Shown here: in pieces, positions 10,920-64,000 of the stretch
How the letters are laid out: each line of letters opens with the position of its first letter
Numbering within the stretch: the stretch's first letter is position 1
Translations under genes and position numbers: made by a program
Virus record (IMG/VR): IMGVR_UViG_3300035701_000016
Location: 1 to 64,000 of that record
Origin: a virus
Length of the DNA stretch: 64,000 bases
Reading direction: 5' to 3' (one strand)
The notes under the pieces: model-generated
Told to the model about the DNA's origin: nothing
Seen by the model: only the letters and a program-made list of their open reading frames with translations
The model's database searches: none

Positions 10920-10959
10920 AGCCTGTATTCTTCCCGAAAGTTTCGACAGAGGAGATTGA

Positions 10960-11223
10960 TTAGTTCTTCTCTGAACTTCCTGTCGATGAAGTTGGTACAT
11001 TTCTTGGCTCGTAAACATCATCTTTCTCCAATCTTATCATGAATAATATGGTAACTCCCTTGGCATCATTCTTTGCGAACAAGTTCATGATCATATCGTG
11101 CATAGCCACTTCGGATACCTTGGGAATCTCCACGATGCCGTTGCTGAATATGGTTCTACCATCTTTGGTGTTGATCAGGTAGGTTATGAAATATCTTCTC
11201 TTATCTCCGTTATTGCTGCTCAT
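10960..11223 (-). CDS. Hypothetical protein
   Basis: ATGA-coupled to the upstream gene. Confidence 0.6.
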   Translation of the reverse strand: MSSNNGDKRRYFITYLINTKDGRTIFSNGIVEIPKVSEVAMHDMIMNLFAKNDAKGVTILFMIRLEKDDVYEPRNVPTSSTGSSEKN

Positions 11224-41600: not shown

Positions 41601-42533
41601 ATCCTGCATTGTTCCAGCAATTCTATCCGCTATAGGACCTAGAACTTCGTATCCTAACAAGGACTGGATTAGATCTTTGATATTATTCTGAACTGCTAGA
41701 AATGTTCTTGACATTCTAGTCATAGCATTGGGAAAATCTTCGTCAACCATTTTCACGAATTCTGCCACGAATGCCTTCGCAGAAATCTTTCCGGTAGAGA
41801 ACATTTTGAGAATTTCTGCTCTTGCGACTCCCATTTGTTTTCCAAATCTGTCGGCAATAGTTCCTATTGGAACGAAACTGTTGGACAGGTCACGCAACTC
41901 ACGACCGGTTGGCTTTCCCTGAGCTACCATCTGACCCATATTATAGATAATTCTTCTAAGAACCTCATCTCCTAGACCCATAGCCGCAGTGAAGTTACCT
42001 ACAGATTCAGTAAGTTTCTTAGATTCAGGAACAGTAAATCCATATGCTTGTGCAAGAGCCAGAACATGACCTACATCCTCTACGGAGAAAGGAGTAGTGA
42101 CAGCTAATTGCCTGACCCAATACAGTAAGTCCTGAGCTTGACCTGCCGTTTCTCTTAGAGCAGTTGCGATGGGAACTCCGAATTGTCTGGCATAGTCTCT
42201 AGCTGCAAGAGTATCAAACTGAATTTTCATAGTTTGAAATACAGATACAGCAGCAACAGCCTCGTTCGCAACTCCTACTATAGCTTTCTCTATATCTCTA
42301 AAAGTATCAGCCACTAGAATACTGAAAGTTACGTCACGAATTCTCTTCAGAGCAGAATCGAGACCTCCCATACTAGCTCCGGCATTCGTCATGCCTTTAG
42401 ACACGGAGTCAGCAAAGGATTTGGTTACAGTGTACATTCCAGATAGTATAGAATTATAGTTCTTAGAATTTTGCTGGACATTAGTTATGTCCATCATAGC
42501 TTTAAGAACGGTTGCTACTTCCTCAATAGCCAT
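38607..42533 (-). CDS. Tape measure protein
   Basis: 1308 aa, helical; LAVTTPF..., GQMVAQGK tape-measure domain; GSPSRVF near the C-terminus. Confidence 0.92.
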   Translation of the reverse strand: MAIEEVATVLKAMMDITNVQQNSKNYNSILSGMYTVTKSFADSVSKGMTNAGASMGGLDSALKRIRDVTFSILVADTFRDIEKAIVGVANEAVAAVSVFQTMKIQFDTLAARDYARQFGVPIATALRETAGQAQDLLYWVRQLAVTTPFSVEDVGHVLALAQAYGFTVPESKKLTESVGNFTAAMGLGDEVLRRIIYNMGQMVAQGKPTGRELRDLSNSFVPIGTIADRFGKQMGVARAEILKMFSTGKISAKAFVAEFVKMVDEDFPNAMTRMSRTFLAVQNNIKDLIQSLLGYEVLGPIADRIAGTMQDMLQSVLTPENYAIAGNLGQTLLFGFDKLAATVQSVVVPAFGEFFAMIGIGRPTTYDVSKVVLTLAANIKLLAENASAGLSGVTQFIGDVLGFFGTSFTDLTTNMFTWGENIILAFADGMANALIFVVDALTSVADTITYWLQAGSPPKILPELTLWGTQAMASYMEGWKVQDFSVFTDISDMMSKAIKSWGSILTDVEISGRIIKTEKLIAQAVDQFSHFGNITVEAINGIMNAAGFASQEMSNFILATVQYTKAANILEAVNSMLKFSGSGSVNVFGKGISSFGDIKNIASMFGGLSNLISNYASDSLRLAAVDKKLAAAQAELNRTMSMYDAILGLLNGQLTKLKDQQVDMTRVQDIDNALATKILTEKEKERLINERAQIMVERQIRDKELEKEAALDMIKAKIEGYQEEQKALKERVELEKQQIKEIAQANADAAKAQAEALKQTLQAQIDMNNELKRQKDLADKAKADAEKEAKKAAGANEDLTASALGFEDYGVKAGKSIVTGITQGIKDKTGEIQKAMQDLWDNVLDKAKEFWGQLGDKFSPLKGLWDNLVNSFKNLTPKLQYSWDLLKDTIGKGMLQLRKFWEEDGSRIAKSVGAVIGTIVENLFLTKPGDKSVIQLLAEGFVTFGETLSKNKDGIVSVIDSITNFFSEDFFPMIKGVITNVTEKLIPAIMDLVIKAIPPLMDFLGYIVKNAPTIIGVILAIGGLQSLFGAAGKLFGDMLKTAGLIMIVVKAFEIIGKSTIFVSIMNFLSGFVGIDFTALILSMNPWVLLIAGAAFEVLALVGAIILLVYTIKNAGPQAWRTIMDMGGIMYMEFDKLKWKVEEFVKTFRENWDFLFGEKGGLRLVIDGFVNYLFGDKGTISTWIKGFFDAGANMVHGLWDGVLSAKDWIVTNLSDFWHGIIAQVNKILDMGSPSRVFYDIGANIMEGMYQGIRDNAYSPISAIGGVMSQITNVSNDNRTFVSMNANYENMQSPSSVYYDVRAALALARS

Positions 42534-45874: not shown

Positions 45875-46907
45875 GATAAGGTCCTATCAGAGCAGACATT
45901 CTAACCAGAGCCATGCCACAAGCCCACTTCCAAGCAATCCATGCTCCGTCAGATAAACCAAACGGACAATTCAATCTCTCAGCTGTAAGTATCTGAGGAG
46001 TAGTGTTGTCTCTTCTCCACATACTCTTAACAATATCACAACCACATGGTTCAGACGGCATCTTGGTATGAGCCAATCTTACTATGGTCATTTCAGCCTG
46101 TCGGGTCAATTTAGTTAGTCCCGAGTAATAATTCAATAACGAATGAGAATAATTTCTGCAACACGAACTAGAATTTGAATGAATTCCCACTTTTCCAATC
46201 TCTGCATCTTCTATTCTGATACAACCTGAATCATAGTCCGTGAGACAAAAGGATGTACAGTTATCTGAATTGAAATACACAAATTTTGCCTGAACAGAAT
46301 CATCATTGTGAATCCAGTGAACATCCACGGTATCCTGGAAGTTGGCATTATCACTGTAGTCTAAACCTTCTGGAGGATTATCCTGTAGCAGATAGTCTAC
46401 CAATCTACACTTAGGAATTGTGATCACAAGATTACCGCCAGCATAGGTTATATTCTTTACCGTAATCTCCTGATCAGTACCAGGATAGAATACATGAACT
46501 TCGCTCAAATCTGAAGGTACGGAGGCGGTAGCGATAGTAATTGTGCAGGGATCAGTAGCAAGACTGACGGCAGCACCATTTGAGATCACCTCCTCTTTCT
46601 GAACTCCGGCAGATATAAGTTTGCCCCACTTCGTAATAGCTGGAAAATTCAAACCTGATTGTTCATCAGTTGTCCACCTGGGCTTCAGAAAATATCCTAG
46701 AATTTCTTCAATTTCATCCTGAGCCTCAGAAAGATAATACTGAGCATCATCTCTTTGCTTCTTAGTCCATATTTCTCTACAGGCATACTGAATATTGGAG
46801 GGGTGAGAAACGCCGAAGAAGGCACACTCAGTATATCCTATGATCTGAGAATACCTTACTAATGATACAGCACCAGAAATTACTTCCTCACCAAATATAT
46901 CAGTCAT
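45858..46907 (-). CDS. Putative head-tail adaptor
   Basis: LSEAQDEIEEILGYF; YYSG; position after the capsid gene. Confidence 0.6.
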   Translation of the reverse strand: MTDIFGEEVISGAVSLVRYSQIIGYTECAFFGVSHPSNIQYACREIWTKKQRDDAQYYLSEAQDEIEEILGYFLKPRWTTDEQSGLNFPAITKWGKLISAGVQKEEVISNGAAVSLATDPCTITIATASVPSDLSEVHVFYPGTDQEITVKNITYAGGNLVITIPKCRLVDYLLQDNPPEGLDYSDNANFQDTVDVHWIHNDDSVQAKFVYFNSDNCTSFCLTDYDSGCIRIEDAEIGKVGIHSNSSSCCRNYSHSLLNYYSGLTKLTRQAEMTIVRLAHTKMPSEPCGCDIVKSMWRRDNTTPQILTAERLNCPFGLSDGAWIAWKWACGMALVRMSALIGPYHGFPY

Positions 46908-47220
46908 TTCTATTACCTGATCTTGACTCCAAAAAGCACTGAATCCCAGTTATTGCAAAGAATCCTAGGATCACATCTCCAACAACAGAAGGTACAAACA
47001 CTAGATAACATAACGGTATCGCAAACCATATTCCCAAGCAGAATGGACAGTTTATAAGTTTTGCGAAACTTACGATGAATCTGTTATCACTAACAGATGC
47101 ATGTCTTCCAGATACTATCCTGAGATTACTGAATATGTCAATCGGTCCTTCATCCAAACTTATCAACTCAGCCAAACGGTAGCAAGCGAGACCAGCAAGA
47201 ATTATTCTTACTATATCCAT
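46900..47220 (-). CDS. DUF1360-like membrane protein
   Basis: LACYRLAELISLD, LINCPFCLGIW. Confidence 0.7.
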   Translation of the reverse strand: MDIVRIILAGLACYRLAELISLDEGPIDIFSNLRIVSGRHASVSDNRFIVSFAKLINCPFCLGIWFAIPLCYLVFVPSVVGDVILGFFAITGIQCFLESRSGNRND

Positions 47221-47221
47221 T

Positions 47222-48523
47222 CTACTCTGTTAATGCCTTCTTTATATCCTCAATCTTGGACTCGGTCATGCCAGTAGTAACGGATAGAAATAAATTATCG
47301 GTTGACATGAATTTCTCCCAGGTATCAATTCCTGTAAATTTCAACTTATCAACTGATTTCTTTCCTACTCCTTCTACATCACCTGGATTAATCGGATGAG
47401 CCACAATATCTTCCACCGGTTTTTCTACAGGTTTCAGAGGAGTCTCCTTGACATTGGATTGAGCAGGAACAGGAACAGGAGCGGGACTCGACATATGTCT
47501 TTCCTGAATCTCAAATAAAGGTTTCTGATACTGCATAAGATCCATGATTCCTGTGTTCTTGTTTGTACTCAGATCCCTGTTGTCAATATTTCCTAGATTC
47601 TTGCTCTTACTGAATGTATAAGCAGCTCCGGTAACAGCACCGAAGAAAGTTTGCTTTCCGTCATTCTCTCCCATGTATCTTACAAGAGTCATTCCCTGAG
47701 ATCCGGCTAACCTCATAGGAGAATTCGCATCATACGATGACGGATTGCTACCGGAACTATTTCTGCTTCTTGCTCTACCACCACAGCAACTCATACTAAA
47801 CCTCCCCGAATAAAGATCAGGAAATTCCTCACGCATTAGAAGATGAAATCTTTCCTGCCATTCTGGCGATGTGTTCGTCAGAGTTCTATTCTGTTTCTCT
47901 CTACGGTAGAGATAACCCGCACCTTCTATGTGCAAACCACAGCAACCGACTGATCCTAGTGCTACATTGAATGACCAGTCATCTCTACCAATTCCAAACT
48001 TTTCTCGATAACCGCCACAAAGTTCCCATGCTTTTCTGGGAAACATTATTCCTGAATGTATTATATTTCTCTCCAAAAGCATGTAAAAGTCATAGTCATG
48101 AAATTTCCATTCCTTCTCTACTCTTGCTCCATCATGAAATACTCTCATGTTGTCATAGATTAGATTGGTAGGATTTTTTGACTGTTCCTCATACATCCTT
48201 TCAAGAGACCACCATTCTCTCATGTCATCTGCATCTATTCTGGCTATAAATTCACATTGTGTATTCTGTATCGCCAGATTGCAGGCGGCAGCAGATCCCG
48301 AGTTTACTGGAGTTCTCAGATATTTTACTGAAGAATATTTCTTGACTATTTCCTCAGTATTGTCAGTTGAACAGTCGTCAACAACTATGACTTCCGTGGG
48401 TAACAGATTTTGTACCGGAAGATCACCCAGGGAAGATACCCCACCAAACAATGATGCAAACAAATCTGGAAGATAGATTGCATGATTGTATGACGGAACT
48501 ATAACGGCTAGGGACACATCCAT
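47222..48523 (-). CDS. GT2 glycosyltransferase fused to a C-terminal domain with HhH-like end
   Basis: VIVPSYN, VVDDCSTD, RIDADD, DDW; internal SD+ATG at 47794. Confidence 0.85.
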   Translation of the reverse strand: MDVSLAVIVPSYNHAIYLPDLFASLFGGVSSLGDLPVQNLLPTEVIVVDDCSTDNTEEIVKKYSSVKYLRTPVNSGSAAACNLAIQNTQCEFIARIDADDMREWWSLERMYEEQSKNPTNLIYDNMRVFHDGARVEKEWKFHDYDFYMLLERNIIHSGIMFPRKAWELCGGYREKFGIGRDDWSFNVALGSVGCCGLHIEGAGYLYRREKQNRTLTNTSPEWQERFHLLMREEFPDLYSGRFSMSCCGGRARSRNSSGSNPSSYDANSPMRLAGSQGMTLVRYMGENDGKQTFFGAVTGAAYTFSKSKNLGNIDNRDLSTNKNTGIMDLMQYQKPLFEIQERHMSSPAPVPVPAQSNVKETPLKPVEKPVEDIVAHPINPGDVEGVGKKSVDKLKFTGIDTWEKFMSTDNLFLSVTTGMTESKIEDIKKALTE

Positions 48524-48538
48524 GAGAAATTCCACCTT

Positions 48539-51443: not shown

Positions 51444-53156
51444 TCAACTTTTTTCCTTTTTGTATTCGTCTATCATGATCTGAAGTTCCTCGACCCTTCT
51501 CTTGAAGGAATGATTATCATCCGTAAATCTTTTTCCTTGTCTTGCTATTATTTCTCGCTCTCTTTCTTTGGGAAGCCACTCTCTGATCTTTTCACCCAGA
51601 TCATCAAAATCTTCCCATACTACCAGATGAACTCCATCTTCAAAACCCATGAAATATTCCATTCCTTCTATCTTTTGTTGGAATACAAAAGCTCCTGCAT
51701 GAAGCATTTGGAATAATCTATTAGACACATAACCTATCGATTTTGGAAATAAATTGTCACCTATAGCAATCTTGGAAGAACGGTAGAGAACGTCTCCTGC
51801 AGAGAAGTCATATATGGTATTTCCGTCTGATCCTATATGAGAAGGCCACTGACCGAATAGACCTACCTTCAGATCCTTTTGTCTTCTCAACAATTCAGCC
51901 ATCTTCTGTCTTCTAGGGTCATAACAATTCCCTAAAAATACAATGTCATATCTGTTCTTATTTATTTCTGAATCGGGAACCCTATTGTAATCCTCATATC
52001 CTATCTGCCAGTATTTATAGTTGATGCCATAATCGACATAATCTTTGGCTATGTCGCCTATGGCAAATGATGCAAGATCGAACATTTTGCATATTTCTTT
52101 GTACTCTTTAGATCCATGAACATTCTCATGATAATCACCGCTCCATGACATGAATATTGTATTCTTATATTCATCTTTCATTCTCATCATGAAGTCATAA
52201 GTAAATATCTTGGGATGTTGGAATTGAACCAAGCAAATATCAGGATTGAAATTATCAATATCATATTCCAATAAATCCAAATGACCCTGATAATTTATTT
52301 CAGATACCAAATATTTCTCTGACAAAGCTTTTCTCAATCCAATCTTGGTTTTTAGCTGATGAGGAAATACTTTATCTTCGTACAGTGGAGCATAGGTAAT
52401 TCTTGGAATTCTTTTGCATGGATTGGTAACGGTAGGAGAAAACTTGATGACTGGACCCAGAACACCATTCCTTGTCCATTTATTTCTCCACTTAGCAGAA
52501 TCAGGATGACCTCCGGTAAGATGGTCAACAGGATTATTTAATTTTCTAAGGTCGTCATCTATCTGGAAATCATTAATACAAGCGCAAGGAATTCCTTCAA
52601 CCTTAAATCCCATCTCTAGAACCTGACAGCTTAAATCTGAATCTCCACCATAGGATACATAATCATTCCATCCGCCACATTTTGTGAGTAACCATCTTGG
52701 AATGATACATACTTGACCATATACTGTAGAAACCTTCTTACCGTTCCTAATAGCTGGCATACTGTCAAGGGTATATTCAGCAGAATGTCTATTTTGATAG
52801 AAACAACCAATTCCTACATCCAGATGATCGTCCATGTAGGCTATGGCAAGTCTTATCCCCTCAAATCTGAACTCAACATCGTCATTCGGCATAATGACAT
52901 ATTTGCCCCTTGACCTATTGAATCCAACATTATATGCCTGAATTAGTCCTAACAAAGCACCCTGCTCTATTAGAACTATGTCATCTTGTTCTCTCATCCA
53001 CTCCAAACTTCCGTCATTGCTTCCACCATCTACCATAACAATCTCGTACGGTATTCCTATACCGACGGATGATCTAACACTATAGATCATTCTCTTAAGA
53101 GATTCAAATCTGTTATATGTTCCTGATACTATTGACACGTATGGATTTTCAATCAT
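51444..53156 (-). CDS. Bifunctional glycosyltransferase (GT2 + GT-B CgeB/Glyco_trans_1_2-like)
   Basis: VDGGSNDGS, NDD, GDSDL; YDIVFLGN, YRSSKIAIG, SNRLFQ. Confidence 0.88.
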   Translation of the reverse strand: MIENPYVSIVSGTYNRFESLKRMIYSVRSSVGIGIPYEIVMVDGGSNDGSLEWMREQDDIVLIEQGALLGLIQAYNVGFNRSRGKYVIMPNDDVEFRFEGIRLAIAYMDDHLDVGIGCFYQNRHSAEYTLDSMPAIRNGKKVSTVYGQVCIIPRWLLTKCGGWNDYVSYGGDSDLSCQVLEMGFKVEGIPCACINDFQIDDDLRKLNNPVDHLTGGHPDSAKWRNKWTRNGVLGPVIKFSPTVTNPCKRIPRITYAPLYEDKVFPHQLKTKIGLRKALSEKYLVSEINYQGHLDLLEYDIDNFNPDICLVQFQHPKIFTYDFMMRMKDEYKNTIFMSWSGDYHENVHGSKEYKEICKMFDLASFAIGDIAKDYVDYGINYKYWQIGYEDYNRVPDSEINKNRYDIVFLGNCYDPRRQKMAELLRRQKDLKVGLFGQWPSHIGSDGNTIYDFSAGDVLYRSSKIAIGDNLFPKSIGYVSNRLFQMLHAGAFVFQQKIEGMEYFMGFEDGVHLVVWEDFDDLGEKIREWLPKEREREIIARQGKRFTDDNHSFKRRVEELQIMIDEYKKEKS

Positions 53157-53926
53157 GGAAGCTCCCTCTCTTCATCATGCTTAGGTCCGGTAAGAAAATC
53201 ACGATATCTTGTAGTAAGAATTGGAATATTTTTGACCCAACTTTCCTGTGCTATATTCCCACTATTGGTTCTGTGAGAAGTACCCCACTCCCATCTTGAG
53301 AAATTTGGAAGACAATACAAACCTGACAACCAACCATGATTAATATATCCCTTTATGCACAAATCAACTTCCTCAGTATTTAGTGGAGCATATATCTCGT
53401 CAAAATAACCCAAAGTTTCCACCATGCTATGTCTCCACATCAAAGGTCCACGATTTACTGCATCTTTTATGTAGAATATATTTCTCTCGGCATCTTGTCT
53501 TTCAATCAATGATTTTCTCCATCCTATCATACCGTTATCTTCCAAATAGAAATTGAAACATGCCTGAGCAGATACGGCAAGAACTTCACTCCATCTAATG
53601 AATGGTTTAAGTAATCTTTCATCAAAATTTTCCTCCACAGCAATCATATCATCTTGCATGTTGAGTATGAACGGTTCTCTGCATACCCTGTATCCAAGAT
53701 TGCACGCTTTATTCTCGAAAACTCCGTTGGATACTAAGATATTGTAATTGAATTTCTTTTCCGTAGATTCTATGAATTCCCCGGTAATTTCCTGAGATCT
53801 ATCCGTACATCCGTCAAATACTATAACTAATTCTTTAACCAATGGAGAACAGTTATAGTATATTCCATTAAGAACATTTAAAATAATGTCCTCATGATTG
53901 AAAACTGTTAGAACAATGCTAATCAT
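53153..53926 (-). CDS. GT2 glycosyltransferase
   Basis: ISIVLTVFN, FDGCTDRS, MQDD, GYFDE, EEVDL. Confidence 0.88.
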   Translation of the reverse strand: MISIVLTVFNHEDIILNVLNGIYYNCSPLVKELVIVFDGCTDRSQEITGEFIESTEKKFNYNILVSNGVFENKACNLGYRVCREPFILNMQDDMIAVEENFDERLLKPFIRWSEVLAVSAQACFNFYLEDNGMIGWRKSLIERQDAERNIFYIKDAVNRGPLMWRHSMVETLGYFDEIYAPLNTEEVDLCIKGYINHGWLSGLYCLPNFSRWEWGTSHRTNSGNIAQESWVKNIPILTTRYRDFLTGPKHDEERELP

Positions 53927-54554
53927 AGATAGTGTTTGCCAAGAGAGCATCTCCGCAGACGCCCCCAGGATAGTCCTCTACCACTCTAAATGACGGTAGT
54001 AGCTCAAGAATTCTAGGGAGGGTACAGAATCCTTTGTATAGCTCAACATTCTCATATTCCGTGAAGAAACCCTTTACCTTGGTTCTGAATATCTCGAGAC
54101 CTCCCATAATCATACGTTCTTCAGCCCCTTGTATGTCAGACCATACAAAGTCTATCACGTCAATTCTATGCAAAGCACAAAATGTGTCCAATCGTATAGT
54201 TGGAACTACATATTCTTCAACAAATGGAATCTGATCGAATACAGTTTTATGCAGCATGGGAACTTGAATAGATCCGGAAGCATCTCCATATCTATTAGGA
54301 TTGGAAGATAATCCACCTGCAACATAAAAAGTAGCTTCACCATCCTCATCAGATATTGCTCCCTCGAATAGTGTAGCTTTAAGATTTAGAGCTCTAATCT
54401 TTTTTATGTTCTCTCTATCAGGCTCGAATAGATACAAATGAACATTAGGCCACATAAGGGAGAAATGTTGTGAATCCTCACCATAATGAGAACCAGCTTC
54501 TACTATGGTAGGATCTGATCTCTTTACAAATTGACGAATCAAATCTTTGTTCAT
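53919..54554 (-). CDS. FkbM-family methyltransferase
   Basis: IVEAGSHYG, FEP, RLDTF, DIQGAE. Confidence 0.88.
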   Translation of the reverse strand: MNKDLIRQFVKRSDPTIVEAGSHYGEDSQHFSLMWPNVHLYLFEPDRENIKKIRALNLKATLFEGAISDEDGEATFYVAGGLSSNPNRYGDASGSIQVPMLHKTVFDQIPFVEEYVVPTIRLDTFCALHRIDVIDFVWSDIQGAEERMIMGGLEIFRTKVKGFFTEYENVELYKGFCTLPRILELLPSFRVVEDYPGGVCGDALLANTIYD

Positions 54555-55192
54555 AGTTTATCCGTTATGTAGATGGCATTCACTCCATCATTTTGAATCA
54601 TATCGTACAAATGAGATTTAGTCCAATTTGTAATCCAATCAAAATTGAATGCAGATTCAATGATCATCATCTTTGGTCTCCAGATATCTGCATTGAATCC
54701 CGAAAGAACAGAAGGTTCACCACCCTCAACATCTATAACGATTAGATCCAGATTGGCTGGAACTTTATGCTGACAAAGTATGGTATCCAATTTCATACCA
54801 TAAGCCTCTATAAATTTTTCTGGAGAATATTTCCAACCCCATCCTCTGGCAAGTTCATTGGCAGCTATACTTTCATTCAGAGTGCAAGCATCATAGAAAT
54901 CTGCGTCACTAAGCCAGAGTTTCACCATTCCTTCGTGATCGGTAGCGGCACATTCAAGAACGATAACTTTATTATTCTTGTGCATTTCTTTGCAATCTTC
55001 CGCCAACTGATGTATGGGCTCAATATAGATACCGTTCCAACCAGCCTCAGCCAATCCCCAAGTATTAGACCAGTTGAAACCATTATGAGCTCCGATCTCC
55101 ACGAAATATCCATCAACCTTATCATTGAAATATTTCGTGTAGAGTTCAAAAAGATTCGTTATCTGACAATCTTTGGCAGATTTATAGCTCAT
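54551..55192 (-). CDS. FkbM-family methyltransferase
   Basis: FVEIGAHNG...SNT, GWNGIYIEP, IDVEGGE. Confidence 0.88.
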   Translation of the reverse strand: MSYKSAKDCQITNLFELYTKYFNDKVDGYFVEIGAHNGFNWSNTWGLAEAGWNGIYIEPIHQLAEDCKEMHKNNKVIVLECAATDHEGMVKLWLSDADFYDACTLNESIAANELARGWGWKYSPEKFIEAYGMKLDTILCQHKVPANLDLIVIDVEGGEPSVLSGFNADIWRPKMMIIESAFNFDWITNWTKSHLYDMIQNDGVNAIYITDKL

Positions 55193-55722
55193 AGCAGATC
55201 CTCACGGTAGGCAACAAATAGATCTCTGGGCTCGGCATGTTCGTTATTCTCCAGAATAATTTTGAACAGTGGATCGATTTCATGGACAGCTTCTATGATA
55301 TCGTCTACCGTAACATCTACCCAATGTTGAAATCCCATCAGACGCATATCATCTGCAAGAATTGTTACTGGAAATCTATGGAGATCTCTGATTGCTCCTA
55401 TCTCTTCAAGTATAGGAGTACCGGCAGTCCAATGTCCCTCATGAGCATCTAACCAGAACATAGTAGGATACTCTAGATAAGGAATTAGCTCCATTAGAAC
55501 TGAAACAGAATCTCCGGTCAGAAGAGTTACCTGGGGATAATCTTTCAATCTATCCAGGGCAAATTGATGCCATTCTGTACTGATATCGATAGAGTAGATT
55601 GTGTCAAATCCTGCATCAACGGCGGTTTGTACCGTATTTCCGGTCTCTGTTCCAGTTTCCACAAAAATCTTGGACTGCCCTTTATATTTCAACAAAATAT
55701 CCAGAGGAAGACTTGCTGACAT
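55189..55722 (-). CDS. Class I SAM-dependent methyltransferase-like protein
   Basis: FVETGTETG, GDS, FWLDAH, ADDMR. Confidence 0.78.
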   Translation of the reverse strand: MSASLPLDILLKYKGQSKIFVETGTETGNTVQTAVDAGFDTIYSIDISTEWHQFALDRLKDYPQVTLLTGDSVSVLMELIPYLEYPTMFWLDAHEGHWTAGTPILEEIGAIRDLHRFPVTILADDMRLMGFQHWVDVTVDDIIEAVHEIDPLFKIILENNEHAEPRDLFVAYREDLL

Positions 55723-55734
55723 TTTATTTCTCCC

Positions 55735-55767
55735 CGTACTGGTCGGCCTGGATAGACCGACCAGTAC
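55735..55767. repeat. 11-bp inverted repeat
   Basis: GTACTGGTCGG/CCGACCAGTAC. Confidence 0.6.
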
Positions 55768-55778
55768 ATATATCCCGA

Positions 55779-56105
55779 CTAAACCGGAGGTTCCACCGGA
55801 GGAGGAACAGGATTGGCTAAAACAGCAGCCTGAATAGCGGCACTTTTCTTATCCAGATCGTCAGCAAGTTTCAGCATCAAGATAGGATCGTAGGCATTGT
55901 TCTTGATGTAAATTGACAGATCTGTAACGAGAGTGATGATACTATCAGCAGCACCCTCAATTGCCGTAACACGAGTAACTAGAAGATCTACTTCACCAGC
56001 CATTTTTCTAATCTCCTTTGCCATAAAAGAAATATTGGTTTCAATTCGATCCAATTCATTGAGGATCTTACGAATCTTTTCGTACAACCATATTTTCATC
56101 ATCAC
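55779..56105 (-). CDS. Hypothetical coiled-coil protein
   Basis: SD GGAGG; second possible start at 56003. Confidence 0.7.
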   Translation of the reverse strand: MMMKIWLYEKIRKILNELDRIETNISFMAKEIRKMAGEVDLLVTRVTAIEGAADSIITLVTDLSIYIKNNAYDPILMLKLADDLDKKSAAIQAAVLANPVPPPVEPPV

Positions 56106-56112
56106 CTCCTGT

Positions 56113-56229
56113 TCAATCAGGTTCTACATTATCATCCTCAAACTGATCATCACCACAGTAATCATCATTCTCGGAGTCTACGGTAGAACACTCGTCAAGA
56201 TCAGTCTGGGAAGAATCATTCGGACCCAT
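56113..56229 (-). CDS. Small highly acidic peptide (38 aa)
   Basis: SD GGAG; MGPNDSSQTDLDECSTVDSENDDYCGDDQFEDDNVEPD; fills the gap in the operon. Confidence 0.55.
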   Translation of the reverse strand: MGPNDSSQTDLDECSTVDSENDDYCGDDQFEDDNVEPD

Positions 56230-56231
56230 AG

Positions 56232-59198
56232 CTACTCCCATAAATTTGCCGAGATTAGTAATACTTCTTCATCATCATTTCTTCTCTTCTTCTTCTCCCA
56301 CCAGAATGGTTCCGCATGTCCAGGAGTTACTGCTACGATAGGAGCAGAAGGTGAAGGAGATGCGCTCATGGAAGAAGATATGGACGGTGATGCACTGACA
56401 CTAGCAGAGATGGATGAACTTATCGATGGAGATGCACTTACCGAAGCACTCTTAGAAGAAGATATGGATGGAGAGGCAGAAATTGAAGCACTAATGGAAG
56501 CACTAACAGAAGCACTCTTAGAGGCACTAATTGATACACTTACAGAAGCACTAATAGAAGCACTCAGAGAAGCACTGACAGAAGCACTTATGCTAGGTGA
56601 GGCAGATATTGAGGCAGACATGCTAGCTGATTTGGAAGCACTTATCGATGCACTTACAGAAACAGAAATGCTAGCAGAAATACTAGAAGAAATACTTTCA
56701 GAAATACTAGGTGAAGCACTAACAGATGCAGAAATAGAAGGACTAGCTGAAATTGAAGAAGATAAACTAGCTGAAACAGAGGCTGAAATAGATGGACTAG
56801 CAGATATACTCGCAGATATACTTGCACTTATTGATACTGAAACTGAAGCTGACTCTGATGCTGATACACTAGCACTAATAGATGCACTTTCACTGGTGGA
56901 TACAGAAGCAGAAACCGATGCGGAAATAGAAGCACTAATTGAGGGTGATGCAGAAATTGAAGCCGATTCACTAGACGATACACTGGCTGAGACACTAGCA
57001 CCAATACTAGGTGAAGAACTAACACTAGAAGAAATACTAGGAGAAGCAGATACACTAGCAGAAATAGAGGCACTTATACTCGCAGATACCGAAGCACTAA
57101 TACTTGGTGAAGCCGAGATAGATGCTGAAACAGAAGCACTTACAGAAGCTGAAATACTAAGACTCGCACTAACTGATGAAGATACACTGGCACTAACACT
57201 AGCAGACTTAGATGATGATACAGAAGAGGATATTGAGGGAGAAGCACTAAGTGAAGCACTTAGTGATGCTGATACGGAAGCTGATATACTAAGACTAGCT
57301 GAAACAGAAGAAGAAATAGAAGCGCTTACTGAAGCACTTATACTCAGACTTGCAGAGATAGATGTACTGACCGAAGCGGATATACTAGCACTTATACTGG
57401 GAGAAGCGGATATACTAGCACTAAGAGAAGCACTAACAGAAGAGGATATAGAAGGAGATGATGATACTGATGAACTAACAGAGGAACTCACACTAGCAGA
57501 AATAGAGGGTGAGGCTGATACGGAAGCACTAACACTAGCACTTGTGGAAGCACTTATTGATGGAGAAGCTGAAACTGATCCAGAAACAGACGATGAAATA
57601 CTAGCTGATAAAGATGCAGATACAGATGCACTGATTGAAGGAGATGCAGATACTGATGCACTAATTGATGGACTTGCACTGATACTTGCACTGATGCTAG
57701 GACTAGCTGAAATACTTGCACTCTCAGAAGCACTTTCGGAAGCTGAGATAGAAGGAGATGCACTGATACTAGCAGAGACGGATGCAGATATGGAAGCAGA
57801 TATACTAGCACTTTTCGAAGCTGATATAGAAGCCGAAATTGAAGCACTTTCTGATGCACTGATTGATGGGGAAGCCGAAATAGATGCGCTCTCACTTGCT
57901 GATACTGAAGCGGATATACTGGGACTAGCACTTATTGATGCGCTTTCACTTGCAGATATAGAAGAACTTATACTAGGACTTGCTGACACTGAAGCTGAGA
58001 TGGAAGCACTTACTGAGGCGCTTATACTTGGAGATGCTGAGATACTGGCGCTTTCAGAAGCAGAAATAGAAGCACTAATTGAAAGTGAAGCAGAAATACT
58101 GGCCGAGACTGATGCACTTACGCTGGACGAGATACTTGGGCTGGCACTGATACTTGCAGAAATAGATGCACTAATACTTGCACTTATAGATAGACTAGCA
58201 CTAACACTAGCAGATACTGACGCTGATATTGAAGCACTTATACTAGCCGAAATACTCGGACTTGCCGATACACTAGCACTCACTGAAGCACTAACTGACG
58301 CCGAGATGGAAGGACTTGCACTTACTGACGCCGATTTCGAAGAAGAAACTGAGGAAGATATACTAGGAGAAGCAGAAATTGAAGAGGATACCGAAGAACT
58401 TATTGAAGGTGATGAAGATACAGATGATGAAACTGAAGCACTAATACTAGGAGATGCACTTACGGATTTACTTTCACTTGCTGATACTGAAGATGATGCA
58501 CTTCCCACCACTCCCTTGAATGACTTCTTCATCATGTGGGGGAAGAATATCCTAGGATGGCTGGCAATCGGAACAGTCCCCTGCTCAACCATCTTAGCCC
58601 CGTTCATCAGATCGGGTTCATCCCCACTACTATCCCCACGAATTAGGGGATAGTAGGCGACCAGACTTTCGGGTTTGACAAATAGCGGAGAGTAACCTAC
58701 TGCTAGTTGCTTAATATCCGCCAAGGTTAAAGCCACATTCCAGAAACCGACTTCGGCCAAAATCGCTTCTGCCGCCACTTTCCAATGAGAAGAGGTCGAA
58801 TACAACATAGTACCAAGTGTAGTTCTGCTTACAGTTGTGGCCGGAACTCGACTGGTAGTTTCATCCCCACCGCCTACTCCATTTGTATAACCAGTTCGTA
58901 AAGTAGCAGAGCTAAATACTGCGGCTGCATGATTCCACGCATTAACATTTGTAGCAGGCCCATAAGACGAACTGCTCGCACCTGCCGCCCAAGTTGTCGC
59001 TCCTACTGTTCCCGTTGTTGTTATAAGTCTAAGGCCAAACCCATCAGGGGCAGCATTTGTCGAAGTCAGATATACCAAGGACTGTTCTTGTGTGAATCCT
59101 GATGGATATACCCAACACGCCATAGTCAGCGGCGTGGCTGTAATTAAGCCAGTCGCATTAAGAAAATAATTCGAGGTACTATGAACACCTCGTGCCAT
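56232..59198 (-). CDS. LamG/concanavalin-like domain + ~720-aa serine-rich repeat protein
   Basis: [34 protein letters not shown]; then (S-x) dipeptide repeats [13 protein letters not shown]. Confidence 0.85.
56345..58500 (-). repeat. Degenerate Ser-X coding repeat
   Basis: Continuous SAS[I/V/P/E/K/L] units with diversified codons. Confidence 0.9.
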
Positions 59199-59698
59199 TA
59201 TGTTTCCTTGACTTCTACTGCAAGCAATTCGGCATCCGTAGTTACGTCATCCGTACCTGCTGACCCATCCGCATCCCGGCGAACTTTCAGGCGGAACATT
59301 TCACCAGCCGCCAAACTATCCATTTGTGCCCCATTGGTGAATGTGATTGTTACGAGAGTTGTAACTCCACTTGTTCCGTTTGGATTACCTGCCGCACTCT
59401 GAACTGCGGCAAAACTATCCGCATCCATATCCAGAGAAGCATCATCCATACGCTCAATAGATACCGACCAATAGGCGCTGCCCGATGTGGCCGATGAGAA
59501 CATGACATGCAAGTAGACTGTCAGTCCTCCACCCGCATAATTACGTGGCAGGATACCGGAGAAAACCGCTTCTTCGTCCGCCGCACCATCAAAGTCAAGA
59601 ACTGGATGATAGTTACGTAAATCCAGTGTGGCATAGATAGTTGCCGGAGGTTCATTACAATAAGGATTAAATACTGCTAAAGTATCACCGCTTGCCAT
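59198..59698 (-). CDS. Hypothetical beta-rich protein (virion-associated?)
   Basis: TAATG-coupled; [18 protein letters not shown]. Confidence 0.7.
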
Positions 59699-59985
59699 TA
59701 GTCTACCTCCCCGAATACCTGTTTGAGGATATTCAGATTAAAACGCATGAGAATTACCGCTACCAACAACAGCGACTTTTGAGAAGTAGTTGCAACGGTA
59801 CGAAATGGGGTTGGAAGAGTGTTATTATAACTGACTGAGTTGGCATCCACCCAGGCATCCGCCGCCACAATCGCCGCCGTGAATTGGGTCTTTGTAAATG
59901 CTCCAGTCTGTTCGCGCAGGTTGGACCAATAACGTGAAAGACCTCGTTTTATTCTATCAATATCCACAGTTGATAATGTTGCCAT
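59698..59985 (-). CDS. Hypothetical protein
   Basis: SD GGAG before ATG 59985. Confidence 0.7.
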   Translation of the reverse strand: MATLSTVDIDRIKRGLSRYWSNLREQTGAFTKTQFTAAIVAADAWVDANSVSYNNTLPTPFRTVATTSQKSLLLVAVILMRFNLNILKQVFGEVD

Positions 59986-60127
59986 TGTATCATCTCCATA
60001 TGCTGATTGAACGACTTCTTGAAGTGTGTCTCCACGAGTATGACAATCCAAGTATAAGATATTAATTACCGATGTTTGTTCTGGACGATAATATCCAGTT
60101 TTCCAATAATGATCCCAACTGAACCTC

Positions 60128-61042
60128 CTATGGAATAGATTCCCATCCAGGAACAGGCCAGAACTTCTCTACCAACCATGATAGAGAATGAATTTGTTTA
60201 TCCCATTTTCCTTCGAAAAATAATTCTCTACATTGTTTCTTCGAGCGATTTACCTGTTTCTGCGACATATCGTACGGAAAACTGAAGTCTCCACCTTGAG
60301 TTCTAAACAGATGAGCATAATATGTTTTGTGATCAACCATGACCCTTCCACCACTAAGCCACGTCTTAGCAGCTACTTCTATGCCCTGAGATCCCCATGA
60401 TCCAAAACCTTCATCACATATATTCAAATCAAACCACTTATCTTTTGTCAACATAAAACATGATCCCTGAAGAGACATGGTCTCGGTAAGATCTCCTTGT
60501 CCCTCAGGTCTCTTTTTAAAATCATTAAAGTACTGGAAATGCGGTTCTGAATCGAAACAATACGAAGTAGACTGAGGATTCTCTTTAGCCTTCCAAATAA
60601 TCTTTCTGTAAAGATTTGTACCACCACAAACTTCACACTTCTCAGGGGTAGGACCCTGATATGTTCTTTTTCCACATTTCCTACACTTCCAGTCGAAAGC
60701 CCATAAGTTACGCATGATCGGAACTATTGTCCAATCATCCTGTATATCCTCTAACAATACTCTATCAAAACCCTGGGCAAACGAGCAATGAGCATCAGCT
60801 TTCATGATATATTTGGAATCAGCCAACTTAACTCCATCGTTACAGGCTGCTCTCTGTCCTATAGATACGGGATGAAAGAGTACGGTAACATCAGCATTCT
60901 GATCGATAGGAGGATCCGCCCATTGTCCATCCAGAACTACTATCACTTCAGTATTGGCTTCCTTGTGCTGAAGGATATCCTGAACAGTTTTAGCCACAAA
61001 CATTTCGTTTCTGGACGGAATAACTACACTCAAATCATGCAT
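60128..61042 (-). CDS. GT2 glycosyltransferase (ppGalNAc-T-like motifs) with Zn-ribbon insert
   Basis: LSVVIPSRNE, DAHC (DxH), WGSQGIE, AHLFR; CRKC...CEVC. Confidence 0.85.
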   Translation of the reverse strand: MHDLSVVIPSRNEMFVAKTVQDILQHKEANTEVIVVLDGQWADPPIDQNADVTVLFHPVSIGQRAACNDGVKLADSKYIMKADAHCSFAQGFDRVLLEDIQDDWTIVPIMRNLWAFDWKCRKCGKRTYQGPTPEKCEVCGGTNLYRKIIWKAKENPQSTSYCFDSEPHFQYFNDFKKRPEGQGDLTETMSLQGSCFMLTKDKWFDLNICDEGFGSWGSQGIEVAAKTWLSGGRVMVDHKTYYAHLFRTQGGDFSFPYDMSQKQVNRSKKQCRELFFEGKWDKQIHSLSWLVEKFWPVPGWESIP

Positions 61043-61640
61043 CTTTCCTCAGTTTGGAAATGATAACTTTTCCGGGATAATCTTCTGTAACATAATTTGT
61101 GAATTTTTCGAATAACGGATCAATAAGCGTAGCATGTCTACTCCATATGAAAAACATACCTCCTGAGATGGGAGATATATTCCATCTATGTTCATTAGCA
61201 TAGTTATGAAGTTTACCGTTATCTACATAGTGTCTAAGATATATCCAACCTCCAACTTTGCAAACTCTATACATTTCTCTAATAGCCAGAAGAGGATTTC
61301 CACAATGATCCAGAGAATTTACGCAATGAACTATGTCAAATTGTTCATTATCATACGTCAATAGTCTCATATCCTGCTTCTCTATCCTAATCTCAGGAAT
61401 AACTCCCTTTTCAACCAGCATAGAATTATATTCATCTGCTAGAAGATCGGATGGATACAGATGAATTTCTGTCTCAGGCCAAGTTGATCCAGTAGTAGAA
61501 AACATACCAGCTCCAAGATCAGCAATATCTACTATCTTCTTATTTCCTATCATCTCCCCGAAATAATAGTCCAACTGAAATATTTTATTGAATTGCTTCT
61601 CTTTGTAAGGAAGCTTATTTCTGTAGAATCTTAAGGTCAT
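61035..61640 (-). CDS. Class I SAM-dependent methyltransferase
   Basis: IADLGAG, FDIVHCVNSLDH, EMYRVCKVGG. Confidence 0.85.
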   Translation of the reverse strand: MTLRFYRNKLPYKEKQFNKIFQLDYYFGEMIGNKKIVDIADLGAGMFSTTGSTWPETEIHLYPSDLLADEYNSMLVEKGVIPEIRIEKQDMRLLTYDNEQFDIVHCVNSLDHCGNPLLAIREMYRVCKVGGWIYLRHYVDNGKLHNYANEHRWNISPISGGMFFIWSRHATLIDPLFEKFTNYVTEDYPGKVIISKLRKDA

Positions 61641-62124
61641 TCAAGAACTCCAGAGAACACATCTTACTTATGACAGTGGTATGAGGATTGAATATATTAT
61701 AGTCAAATCTATATTTAAATCTTGAGTATATTCCGGAATAATGATAGAAATTATCTTCCTTAGGATTGGAATCATGCAGAACTATGTAATCTACCAAGTC
61801 TTCTATCCTTACAGCTAGATAGGATCTAAATTCCATAGGATTTACATCTATAATTCCTATATCAAAATGTCTACTAAGATCAATAGTTGTCCAATCAGCG
61901 ATTAAATGAGTTTCATGATGAGTATTATTATTTTTTCCGAATAAATTTAAGTATTTCTCATAATTCTCATATGAAACCAAATCCCTATCCTGAGAAACAC
62001 AAGCCCAGAATAGAAGTGGTGTACTATATAATCCCATACCTAATTCAAGAACATTTCCAGTAGTATGCTCTAGAAGTTTTAAAAGAACGGGTATGTGAGA
62101 ACCCCACCTCATTGTAATTTTCAT
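61615..62124 (-). CDS. Methyltransferase-like protein
   Basis: VLELGMGLYST, IVLHDS. Confidence 0.72.
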   Translation of the reverse strand: MKITMRWGSHIPVLLKLLEHTTGNVLELGMGLYSTPLLFWACVSQDRDLVSYENYEKYLNLFGKNNNTHHETHLIADWTTIDLSRHFDIGIIDVNPMEFRSYLAVRIEDLVDYIVLHDSNPKEDNFYHYSGIYSRFKYRFDYNIFNPHTTVISKMCSLEFLNDLKILQK

Positions 62125-62771
62125 ACTAGACCTAACTTTGTTCTAACAACTCTGGTCGTGCCCCAATACGGTAGGGATCTGGTGGTTTCACCCGCGATAG
62201 TCAGAGTATTGGCTCGCAATCCCAGTCCAGTCTTTATACTCACTACGGGAATATCCGTACCATACCAATTCCAATTCTGATTCAAATTCCTGAAAGGATT
62301 GGTAGGATAATGTCCATTCAACCACAGAGGCTTTCCTTCCAATTCCTTTTCCAACAGATCCAAATAGTATTCTCTGCCTATAATTTGAGCTCCTTCACAC
62401 CATCTCTTCTTGAAGAAGTATCCTCTATGATGCTTCAGAATCCAAACATTACTATATCTATATATTGAATCTAGTTTGCTTGGTTCTATGTCAAAATAGT
62501 CTCTGGGATAAAGATTGTCTGCCTCTGCTGATATAACAAATGGAGTAAATATACTTTGACAGGCTATCTGAATTTGTCTGTATAGATTATGATCATTGGC
62601 TCCAACATCTCCCACACAGATATTTTCTCCGAAATCAATCTGTTTCTGAGATACTGACAGAATAGGAAATCCGGGATTCATTCTCATGAGAACTTTTTGT
62701 ATTTTTTTCTCGAAATTTTCATCCTCTCTGTTGGATGTATAGTAGATAATAGTTGCGTCGTTCTTATTCAT
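62121..62771 (-). CDS. GT-A-like glycosyltransferase (putative), paralog of 62768-63526
   Basis: TIIYYTSN, DFGENICVGDVG, AEAD.LYP. Confidence 0.62.
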   Translation of the reverse strand: MNKNDATIIYYTSNREDENFEKKIQKVLMRMNPGFPILSVSQKQIDFGENICVGDVGANDHNLYRQIQIACQSIFTPFVISAEADNLYPRDYFDIEPSKLDSIYRYSNVWILKHHRGYFFKKRWCEGAQIIGREYYLDLLEKELEGKPLWLNGHYPTNPFRNLNQNWNWYGTDIPVVSIKTGLGLRANTLTIAGETTRSLPYWGTTRVVRTKLGLV

Positions 62772-63526
62772 ATAGAGTGACCGCAATAAGGACACTGATT
62801 GACCATATGATTTTCATCATATAATTTCATAACCTGATCAGCTGTACCCCACGGAACCAACTCAGTTCCTCTCAACGGACCGAGAGCCTTATTTTCACCA
62901 ACCGGATGCTCTCTACCTACCGGAGTAGATACATATCCAAGAGCAAGTGGATGAGAGAAGACAACCATTGGTCGTCCACCCCAACCTTCCTCGGTAGAAA
63001 TTGGTTTCAATCCTAACTTTCTATCGTATCGTCCTGGTTCTCCACAGAATTGGGTGTCATAGGCAGGAAATTTTTCAAGACGTTCAGTTAGAGATCTTAC
63101 CAAAAGATCTCTGGTACATATTAGACTAAATATTATCATTCTGTGTCGCCATGAGAATACCATAGGTTTTGACCATGTGAATATACTCCACTTATTCATA
63201 TCGTACCATAAAGTATCGTCACTGATTGGTCTTCCCTGAAAATGCTGTCTAGGATATAGAACATCATCTTCAGCCATAGCCACATATTTCGTTTTTGCAG
63301 CAATCGCACCTGTAAGGATCTGCCAGTAGATATTGCGATTGGATCTACCGATATCTCCTACGCAGATGTTTTCTCCGAAATCCATAGGTTTATGAGATAC
63401 AGATATCAAAGGAGTATCCTGTATAGCTTCCTTTAGAACCCTTTTAGTATTATCTACAAAGTAGGGATTGTGTTCATCCAGATAATTACTGGTATAATAT
63501 ATGATTGTTAGATCAGTATGTATCAT
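62768..63526 (-). CDS. GT-A-like glycosyltransferase (putative)
   Basis: TIIYYTSN, DFGENICVGDIG, AEDDVLYP. Confidence 0.65.
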   Translation of the reverse strand: MIHTDLTIIYYTSNYLDEHNPYFVDNTKRVLKEAIQDTPLISVSHKPMDFGENICVGDIGRSNRNIYWQILTGAIAAKTKYVAMAEDDVLYPRQHFQGRPISDDTLWYDMNKWSIFTWSKPMVFSWRHRMIIFSLICTRDLLVRSLTERLEKFPAYDTQFCGEPGRYDRKLGLKPISTEEGWGGRPMVVFSHPLALGYVSTPVGREHPVGENKALGPLRGTELVPWGTADQVMKLYDENHMVNQCPYCGHSI

Positions 63527-63999
63527 AATTTAATCCAGAACCAACTTGGAACTCTTTCCTTCGTAAGATACCAGGGATCAATTCTGTGTTCCTTGACATA
63601 GGCATCCACAGCAGTTATTACTCCAAATTCCTGTCTATTGAAGTAGTCATGTCCAGACACTATTCCACCAGATCTTACTTTCCTATTCCATTGAATGATA
63701 TCTGTAACAGCATAGTCAAACGTATGATTGGCATCTATGTAAACAAAATCTAAACTACCATCCTCAAACTCAGGAATGGCATCCATGCTACTACATTTCA
63801 TGAAAGTAACGTTATGATGTCTAAGTAACTTCCTAGCCTGATGAAAATGCTCATCATGAAAACCACTGTAGTCCCAGGGATCATTTTCGTCATCTTCCCA
63901 CAAATCTATACAATACAATTTAACTCCTGGTACACTATCGCAAATATATCGTGAGAATTTACCTTTGGCTACACCAATCTCAACTCCAGTCTTGTATCC
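63523..63999 (-). CDS. Class I SAM methyltransferase (Methyltransf_24-like), 5' end outside the window
   Basis: Frame open to the edge: GVEIGVAKG ... LDFVYIDANH ... GGIVSGHDY. Confidence 0.85.
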   Translation of the reverse strand, partial: GYKTGVEIGVAKGKFSRYICDSVPGVKLYCIDLWEDDENDPWDYSGFHDEHFHQARKLLRHHNVTFMKCSSMDAIPEFEDGSLDFVYIDANHTFDYAVTDIIQWNRKVRSGGIVSGHDYFNRQEFGVITAVDAYVKEHRIDPWYLTKERVPSWFWIKL

Positions 64000-64000
64000 C

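Follow-up and report, generated by a model that had tools for sequence, protein, structure and literature searches.

In the first 64,000 bases of the IMG/VR virus record IMGVR_UViG_3300035701_000016 (the window), a minus-strand gene at 56232-59198 encodes a protein in which a lectin-like laminin G (LamG) domain is followed by 360 serine-X (Ser-X) dipeptides and a short tail. Judged from its sequence and from that of its relatives, we lean towards reading this protein as an O-glycosylated, mucin-like tether that joins a two-protein lectin knob to the virion.

The gene had been placed correctly by the first-pass annotation of this DNA, and a single open reading frame (ORF) of 988 aa fills the interval. 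The N-terminal LamG/ConA lectin-like domain named there matched Laminin_G_3 (PF13385) over aa 9-163 (E 2.9e-12; 47.4 bits, with the cut-off at 27.6). Over the 720 residues from aa 232 to aa 951, serine occupies 359 of the 360 alternate positions in one phase, a run as nearly unbroken as had been described, and the other phase is made up of 128 Ala, 80 Ile, 58 Val, 32 Pro, 26 Ser, 11 Glu, 11 Leu and 7 Lys. The stalk is laid out as SASx tetrapeptides (SAS[IVPELK] units) punctuated by SASPSI, with 31 units ending in SPSI. It is followed by the short charged tail that had also been noted, 41 aa long, with a Pro-rich exit and then a basic, acidic and hydrophobic end. The reported lack of a signal peptide, transmembrane helix and LPxTG motif was borne out, as motif checks of the 988-aa protein returned no LPxTG-like motif and no twin-arginine or other export signal, and the best mean Kyte-Doolittle hydropathy over 19 aa was 1.46.

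The serine codons of the stalk (AGY 140, TCN 219) had been said to alternate between the two classes; they are instead mixed at random, with transitions (aa 52, at 88, ta 87, tt 131) matching independence. The accompanying view of an old, diversified repeat rather than recent slippage stood up better, since the longest exact repeated DNA word across the 2.16-kb repeat is 20 nt and Tandem Repeats Finder returned only short arrays of 70-90% identity. That a low-complexity repeat was mis-assembled into an open frame is very improbable. Short-read assemblies often mishandle repeats, and a 906-aa plus-strand ORF (55933-58653) is open as well; against this, the frame starts in a domain of which thousands of homologues exist, Ser keeps its register over all 360 dipeptides, exact repeats are short, and contigs of two separate studies match without differences. 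Because these identical pieces come from two separate sediment-metagenome studies, the gene can be taken as real and stable. The 906-aa ORF is an antisense by-product of the repeat. A search of sequencing runs at 90% likeness returned 'joints' within the repeat, with sides of <30 nt, which probably derive from other Ser-X genes. No RNA dataset holding the gene was found among the sequencing runs listed, and promoter and terminator scans performed no better than on shuffled sequence.

Ser-X proteins and a GT27-like glycosyltransferase

The late operon between portal and tail is crowded with glycan genes, among them a 304-aa glycosyltransferase (GT), here called GT2b, that consists of a GT2 domain alone and lacks both a ricin-type lectin domain and a type II membrane anchor. 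When GT2b was compared with PDB sequences, 14 of the 15 hits were polypeptide GalNAc-transferases, the best being 1xhb (E 1.7e-7 over ~90 residues). Its DxH motif, DAHC, is identical to that of GalNAc-T1, and its WGsqgiE and HlFR align with WGGENlE and HvFR. GT2b is consequently described here as GT27-like, and as a candidate initiator that would transfer a sugar to peptide Ser/Thr.

The association of GT2b with Ser-X proteins was assessed in 59 viral loci from IMG/VR carrying GT2b homologues (47-72% identity), with the 80 LamG loci described below as the control set, and a Ser-X ORF was counted when it lay on the same strand and held a Ser-X region of at least 30 aa. Such ORFs were present in 49 of the 59 GT2b loci and in 2 of the 80 control loci (p 6e-25, a Fisher value that overstates independence, as the loci counted are interrelated). 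They usually lie directly downstream, often several per phage, and X in most relatives is mostly Pro, Val, Ile or Leu (SPSx). Both control exceptions (L052 and L056) are LamG and Ser-X fusions, and L052 carries homologues of GT2a, Methyltransf_24 and GT2b a few kb downstream. The order GT2a - MT24 - (MT24) - GT-like - GT-like - (169 aa) - (MT) - GT2b, where MT stands for methyltransferase, is conserved in 47-59 loci.

The same pairing was found in cellular genomes. GT2b homologues (49-67% identity) were located in 34 loci on GTDB contigs (one genome per species), and 20 of these loci hold Ser-X ORFs, of up to 2467 aa. Wherever the name attached to one of these 20 can be trusted, it is that of a Patescibacteria genome. 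The trusted taxon names are in large majority Patescibacteria, namely WWE3, Daviesbacteria, Woesebacteria (including a complete 917-kb chromosome), Levybacteria, Roizmanbacteria, Microgenomatus, Yanofskybacteria, Nomurabacteria and Saccharibacteria. The other titles, which we judge unreliable, are 'uncultured Gammaproteobacteria' (~14 co-assembled metagenome-assembled genomes), Pseudomonadales, a Thermoplasmatales archaeon, Proteobacteria and 'uncultured bacterium'; one entry under a Gammaproteobacteria label is a chromosome of 938 kb, a size in keeping with Patescibacteria. The chromosomal GT2b/Ser-X loci look cellular rather than prophage-borne: they are flanked by methyltransferases, GT2s, sugar epimerases and dehydratases and TatC, and neither Terminase_3 nor TMP_3 was found in four of five GT2b-bearing genomes, while the sole Terminase_3 match of the fifth lies on another contig. 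Since the same GT and Ser-X ORFs sit in Patescibacteria genomes, the host of the phage is probably a bacterium of this group (the candidate phyla radiation, CPR) living in sediment and sharing the Ser-X/GT system with the phage.

The co-occurrence of a GT27-like neighbour with Ser-X ORFs (49/59 and 20/34, versus 2/80) makes the stalk a likely acceptor of the surrounding GTs, and we consider its glycosylation probable. Of the long glycosylated stalk with a lectin tip that had been proposed from the letters alone, the stalk and the lectin-like N-terminus are thus favoured by comparison; its projection from the head is another matter, taken up below.

Several further features of Ser-X proteins were observed. 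The giant Ser-X proteins of Patescibacteria chromosomes (L161:12436-17641, L162:11125-19728, L173:13102-19046) lack Sec signals, and in three of five genomes the only tatC of the genome lies immediately downstream of them; in a fourth (L146), the fetched locus stops ~2.8 kb short of tatC, which lies to its downstream side. This adjacency may point to a dedicated export route for stalk proteins glycosylated in the cytoplasm. Many Ser-X proteins of GT2b-bearing phages are closed by a conserved C-terminal domain of ~131 aa (...DSDN.S..DTDF.LT....L.NYK....ISCRVYQ), for example L135:10961-12427, L112:11544-13865 and L122:7360-11700, and the ending WN..GRP....G..GFN..T..LE is common to phage and Patescibacteria Ser-X proteins. 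L052, a 113-kb phage contig, holds a second Ser-X ORF of 1171 aa besides its LamG fusion (L052:11506-15018 and L052:15018-18891), and its GT2b is fused to a domain homologous to the GT-like genes at 62121-62795 and 62768-63526.

The LamG cassette and the C-terminal tail

An exhaustive HMMER search with residues 1-235 returned 7323 clusters of LamG relatives at E<=1e-3, most of them stand-alone proteins of 210-250 aa, with a minority bearing C-terminal extensions of every kind. Among PDB entries, the family profile matched an S-layer LamG protein, pentraxins and, in pneumococcal sialidase B, the lectin domain. Viral contigs scanned with a single sequence gave only 2 loci, both distant, and a metagenome scan gave 8 distant or short loci, among which a close relative with context was not found.

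For the analysis of gene context, 80 IMG/VR loci with LamG relatives were fetched. In ~73 of these, as in the window, the gene directly upstream of LamG encodes a homologue of a 166-aa protein (40-83% identity), and this gene is conserved better than LamG itself. Other structural genes of the phage had no blastp match within the 80 loci. The pair was seen in hundreds of phage contigs adjoining fibre-like genes, and the LamG gene is part of a mobile cassette of two to three genes that moves among unrelated phages. The third member, of 95 aa, is modelled confidently as a helical bundle; Foldseek returned nothing for it at E<=0.001, and VIA Z scores were at most 5.0, which is noise level for helical models.

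The 166-aa protein is predicted with high confidence to be a jelly roll (AlphaFold2 (AF2), pLDDT 91.5) similar to Eph-LBD, CBM36 and CBM22, and its profile gave nothing significant against PDB sequences. Among viral proteins, its fold is matched best by the C-terminal ends of long ones, giant-virus collagen-repeat proteins among them, and in many loci a domain of this type is indeed the C-terminal domain of a long fibre, as in a 2148-aa protein with 22 collagen stretches (L079) and in a phage-tail-repeat protein (L068). A long 166-type gene was paired with a short LamG in 28 loci and a short 166-type gene with a long LamG in 14, neither was extended in 31, and no locus had both extended (Fisher p 5e-4, uncorrected for relatedness of the loci). 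Such a split fits one tether per knob. In our reading, LamG and the 166-aa protein would together form a two-protein knob that binds carbohydrate and is tethered once, either by a shaft N-terminal to the jelly roll or by an extension C-terminal to LamG.

Eight loci (L012, L023, L035, L042, L050, L051, L061 and L062) were seen to hold two to three genes each ending in a 166-aa-type jelly roll, so that one phage can carry several fibres with such a knob. In the tail-fibre region of the window, the minus-strand gene at 33852-34790 contains a segment of ~70 aa with 41-45% identity to the shafts of long 166-domain fibres in L045, L046, L054 and L083, and its product also matches ORFs in the Patescibacteria loci L169 and L171.

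The C-terminal tail recurs as well. Of the 44 long LamG proteins listed, 9 close with an acidic cluster [DE]3-5 and then a short hydrophobic stretch, in many cases preceded by basic residues, examples being RARLDDEEVIMAVIQEF and RKEDEEILLQFIL, and L022 LamG, a long relative outside the 44, ends in DDEEALMLLL. The bearers of the motif are P0004, P0005, P0033, P0045, P0047, P0050, P0108, P0143 and L022 LamG, with looser forms in L080 and L084. Their spacers are mutually unrelated, consisting of Gly/Thr repeats, of Ser-X, or of stretches judged helical by eye (not computed), and the motif pointed out by the first-pass annotation is a real element that recurs in long proteins of the LamG family. 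In its strict form it is the C-terminus of only 3 of 6175 ORFs over all fetched loci, L022 LamG among them, and it occurs only once in the genome of this phage. Two conserved ends around an interchangeable middle look like the layout of a tether. A foldon-like beta-hairpin was also considered for the tail and set aside, as related tails follow long stretches that look helical (by eye), and no correlation of the -2 gene with the tail motif was seen.

A second short ending after long spacers was also observed, consisting of two to three copies of a beta-strand-like motif, [ED][NG]R.[IY].[IV], in L085:1517-3487, L123:5628-6881, L124:2989-5730, P0002, P0003, P0135 and L018 LamG. LamG proteins and Ser-X proteins without LamG both carry this ending, which may serve as a further element for docking or trimerisation.

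Assembly of the proposed tether and competing readings

Taken together, the protein would be a three-part fibre subunit of a 75-kb siphovirus. LamG and the upstream, translationally coupled jelly roll would form the carbohydrate-binding knob, and the (Ser-X)360 stalk would be O-glycosylated in the cytoplasm, where the soluble, GT27-like GT2b would start the glycan. Its extension and O-methylation would fall to roughly seven other GT domains and at least six methyltransferases of the module. The product is envisaged as an elongated, mucin-like rod that would measure some 200 nm at full extension; by our own estimate the stalk would span ~180-250 nm at 0.25-0.35 nm per residue, which is comparable to the tail set by the 1308-aa tape measure. 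The 41-aa basic/acidic/hydrophobic tail would act as a docking or oligomerisation helix tying the stalk to the virion, to the tail more likely than to the head, so that the lectin knob is held out on a long flexible tether and makes first contact with host surface glycans. The parts of this scheme differ in strength. That the protein belongs to the virion we regard as fairly probable, a little less so than glycosylation of the stalk, whereas anchoring by the C-terminus with the knob distal is put forward tentatively, at somewhat less than an even chance. Attachment to the head rather than the tail, from which the stalk had originally been proposed to project, is unlikely: the 166-aa partner caps collagen-like and tail-repeat fibres elsewhere, and one long LamG relative (L057) runs on into a region resembling a baseplate hub (Phage_GPD at E 7e-7, narrowly below the cut-off).

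Several points weigh against the tether as proposed. Phage receptor-binding proteins are usually anchored by a conserved N-terminus, which favours the opposite orientation. For a cassette to cross between unrelated virions, its docking target must either be present in all of them or travel with it, and none was identified. The gene sits at a distance from the tail-tip genes, in the stretch that separates the putative portal from the tail genes. Many of the X residues are Ile or Val, which is compatible with an unglycosylated, beta-rich structure, and the interrelatedness of the loci tempers the co-occurrence statistics. The phage is, moreover, uncultivated and known from sequence alone, and since neither LamG nor the 166-aa protein had a tblastn match among 50,697 GenBank phage records, no relative has been studied so far. 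A megablast of 53000-62000 against GenBank phages likewise gave no match, and PHROGs gave no match for the LamG, 166-aa or 95-aa protein.

The anchoring rule just mentioned bears most directly on a reversed arrangement, in which the LamG/166 knob anchors on the tail or baseplate and the glycosylated stalk projects as a glycan brush, shielding the virion or mimicking a Ser-X surface glycoprotein of the host. LamG is the conserved part here and the C-terminal extensions are highly variable; the baseplate-hub-like continuation of the L057 protein would suit such an anchor, and a host-like coat is conceivable given the giant Ser-X proteins that accompany the same GT cassette on Patescibacteria chromosomes. 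We nevertheless consider this arrangement unlikely, as collagen and tail-repeat fibres carry the 166-aa domain at their C-terminus, which is normally the distal end, the conserved terminal helix motif behind interchangeable spacers resembles a docking element rather than a free end, and most family members are stand-alone LamG proteins of 210-250 aa with nothing to present. Rather less probable still is a protein outside the virion, displayed on the surface of the infected host by way of the host Ser-X route, where it would alter adhesion to partners or exclude other phages as an auxiliary or conversion gene. ConA-like lectin genes of groundwater Patescibacteria phages have been read as auxiliary host-adhesion genes (PMC12911398), and the Patescibacteria Ser-X giants, also without Sec signals, have the only tatC just downstream in at least three of five genomes. 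The present gene, however, lies within the late structural module and is translationally coupled to the fibre-knob gene, the LamG/166 pair recurs near fibre-like genes, and the protein itself carries no twin-arginine or other export signal.

It could also be argued that the Ser-X run is not glycosylated at all, serving as a flexible linker or folding into a silk-like beta structure that has Ser along one side and Ala/Ile/Val along the opposite side, while the GTs and methyltransferases act on cell-wall glycans or DNA. Strict polar/hydrophobic alternation does favour beta strands, and phage GTs often modify DNA or O-antigen, with weak PHROG GtrB-like hits among the GTs of this phage. We hold this to be improbable, and slightly more so than a protein outside the virion: GT2b resembles peptide-acting GT27 enzymes rather than DNA-modifying or lipid-linked GTs, it travels with Ser-X ORFs over unrelated phages and host genomes, and X is Pro (SPSx) in most relatives, a composition that a beta sheet would not tolerate and that O-glycosylated linkers typically show.

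The tether with its two-protein knob can be placed in a wider and more tentative picture, to which we give a little less than an even chance. Phages of Patescibacteria and their hosts would share a cytoplasmic mucin-type O-glycosylation, in which a GT27-like initiator, further GTs and methyltransferases act on (Ser-X)n stalks, and from which this phage would build a sugar-coated tether of ~200 nm, with a two-protein knob, docked by a portable C-terminal helix.

Known systems and genomic surroundings

The first-pass annotation had called the protein a viral analogue of the bacterial serine-rich repeat (SRR) adhesins. As an analogy this is fair, since the Gram-positive SRR adhesins (GspB, Fap1, PsrP, SraP; GtfA/GtfB, accessory Sec (aSec)) likewise have SASx-type repeats with Ser at every second position, and they combine, as described in PMC7948813 and PMC6973325, a non-repeat binding domain on a long stalk with cytoplasmic glycosylation by enzymes encoded beside the substrate. 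Membership of that family is not borne out. The phage protein has neither an aSec signal peptide nor LPxTG, its N-terminus being the conserved LamG start; it has a single repeat with the binding domain at the extreme N-terminus instead of the SRR1-BR-SRR2 order; its X positions are rich in Ile/Val; and its candidate initiator is GT-A/GT27-like, not GtfA/GtfB, and is phage-encoded for a product that needs no export. Among ~40 neighbouring ORFs scanned by Pfam, no Sec component (SecA2/SecY2-type) was found, the hits there being GT2, methyltransferases and one GT2+GT-B fusion. The staphylococcal Ser-Asp repeat (SDR) proteins, glycosylated by SdgA/SdgB according to PMC3794999, are similar in their strict dipeptide repeat with Ser at every second residue and in their glycosylated stalk below a binding domain. 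They differ in that X is Asp, in their sortase anchoring and in their enzymes.

Eukaryotic mucin-type O-glycosylation (GT27; PDB 1xhb, 8v9q, 6e4r) supplies the best solved relatives of GT2b, with the DxH and WG..E/H.FR motifs aligned, and its acceptor is likewise a Ser-rich, Pro-containing, unstructured tract. In contrast to animal GT27 enzymes, GT2b is small and soluble, without their accessory lectin domain or anchor, and the similarity is modest, being confined to the ~90 residues given above (E 1.7e-7). Among phages, the nearest precedent is virion glycosylation in the mycobacteriophages Che8, Corndog and Myrna (Freeman et al. 2023, via PMC11600133), where no dedicated acceptor stalk is involved. 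As there, GT genes, in tandem, and O-methyltransferase genes lie here inside a siphovirus structural operon. The mycobacteriophages modify capsid and tail-tube subunits, whereas the present phage would have, judging by its genes, a lectin protein that bears a dedicated acceptor stalk of 720 residues, along with many more enzymes, other GT families and a host of another phylum.

Exchange of a fibre C-terminal domain as a unit with the next gene is familiar from T-even gp37-gp38, lambda Stf-Tfa and Mu S-U. The LamG cassette resembles these fibre-tip and adhesin/chaperone pairs in that a conserved fibre C-terminal domain is swapped with the following gene; it has no sequence or Pfam relation to them, its downstream partner is a LamG lectin able to carry long extensions, and it is known from genes only. 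A literature search for phage or Patescibacteria Ser-X/Ser-repeat glycoproteins found no description and turned up the Gram-positive SRR/SDR and mycobacteriophage work, while ConA-like lectin genes of Patescibacteria phages receive a generic mention in PMC12911398, where they are listed as auxiliary genes. New here are the LamG/jelly-roll cassette, the SASx (not SPSx) composition and the portable C-terminal motif.

If the proposed reading is true, the protein would add a new class to the known phage fibres, and mucins and SRR adhesins would have their first counterpart in a virus of prokaryotes. To our knowledge, glycosylation of phage-particle proteins is documented in a few mycobacteriophages only, and phages of the CPR are almost unstudied. 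Many environmental phages and their ultra-small hosts would then share a mucin-like acceptor and a relative of the animal mucin-initiating enzymes, and a Ser-X register beside a GT27-like gene would serve as a sequence rule for finding glycosylated virion proteins in metagenomes. The pair would further offer a testable enzyme and substrate for glyco-engineering, and a modular fibre model of lectin knob, interchangeable spacer and portable docking helix.

The window covers bases 1-64000 of a 75,103-bp record that has direct terminal repeats and is rated complete. Its siphovirus gene set includes a tape measure (38607-42533, 1308 aa) followed by Dit, a Gp37-like tail protein and a gp53-like fibre end downstream, and the large terminase (TerL) and a 712-aa putative portal lie just past the window end. 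Because neither major capsid nor portal was identified by Pfam or PHROGs among the proteins scanned, 'head module' is a designation by gene order. The late proteins further include three of the head region, of 468, 461 and 349 aa, and a BNR protein of 487 aa. GT2 domains of the late operon are at L002:1576-2478, 60128-61042, 53153-53950, 51444-53156 (GT-B-fused) and 47222-48535, and the methyltransferases of the module are two Methyltransf_24, one further S-adenosylmethionine (SAM) methyltransferase and two FkbM. The coordinates of the features are collected in the table.

Table. Features of the LamG-Ser-X gene and of the surrounding cassette and glycan genes
Feature	Position	Strand	Basis or remark
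LamG-(Ser-X)360-tail gene	56232..59198	-	988 aa, 93.5 kDa unmodified, 408 Ser
LamG/ConA-like lectin domain, N-terminal, aa 1-225 including the family HPRIF/YP end motif	58524..59198	-	Pfam PF13385, PDB profile matches, relatives
(Ser-X)360 stalk, aa 232-951; probable O-glycan acceptor	56346..58505	-	Ser register, GT-cassette association
C-terminal tail, aa 952-988; candidate docking or oligomerisation helix	56235..56345	-	recurrent motif in relatives
166-aa jelly-roll partner gene	59198..59698	-	stop TAA overlaps LamG ATG (TAATG)
95-aa helical protein, third cassette gene	59698..59985	-	common to 11 loci; AF2 pLDDT 87.9
GT-A glycosyltransferase GT2b, GT27-like; candidate initiating peptide O-glycosyltransferase	60128..61042	-	Pfam GT2, PDB hits
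SAM methyltransferase	61035-61640	-	upstream cassette part
169-aa gene	within the 61035..64000 cassette part	-	conserved cassette order
Two paralogous GT-like genes	62121-62795, 62768-63526	-	ESM Atlas lead only
Methyltransf_24	63523 onward	-	Pfam
Second Methyltransf_24 and GT2a	L002:1053-2478, beyond the window		continuation of the cassette part 61035..64000
Two FkbM methyltransferases	53919-54554, 54551-55192	-	downstream glycan genes, 51444..55192
GT2	53153-53950	-	downstream glycan genes
GT2+GT-B fusion	51444-53156	-	downstream glycan genes

Two further genes of the window were noted. A DUF1360 membrane-protein-like gene (46900-47220, minus strand) lies between a GT2 gene and a 349-aa head-region gene. 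An endolysin-like gene (9879-11033, minus strand; weak GH25 hit) carries a Ser/Pro linker of ~30 aa before its C-terminal part, and this linker is the only other Ser-X-like tract in the genome.

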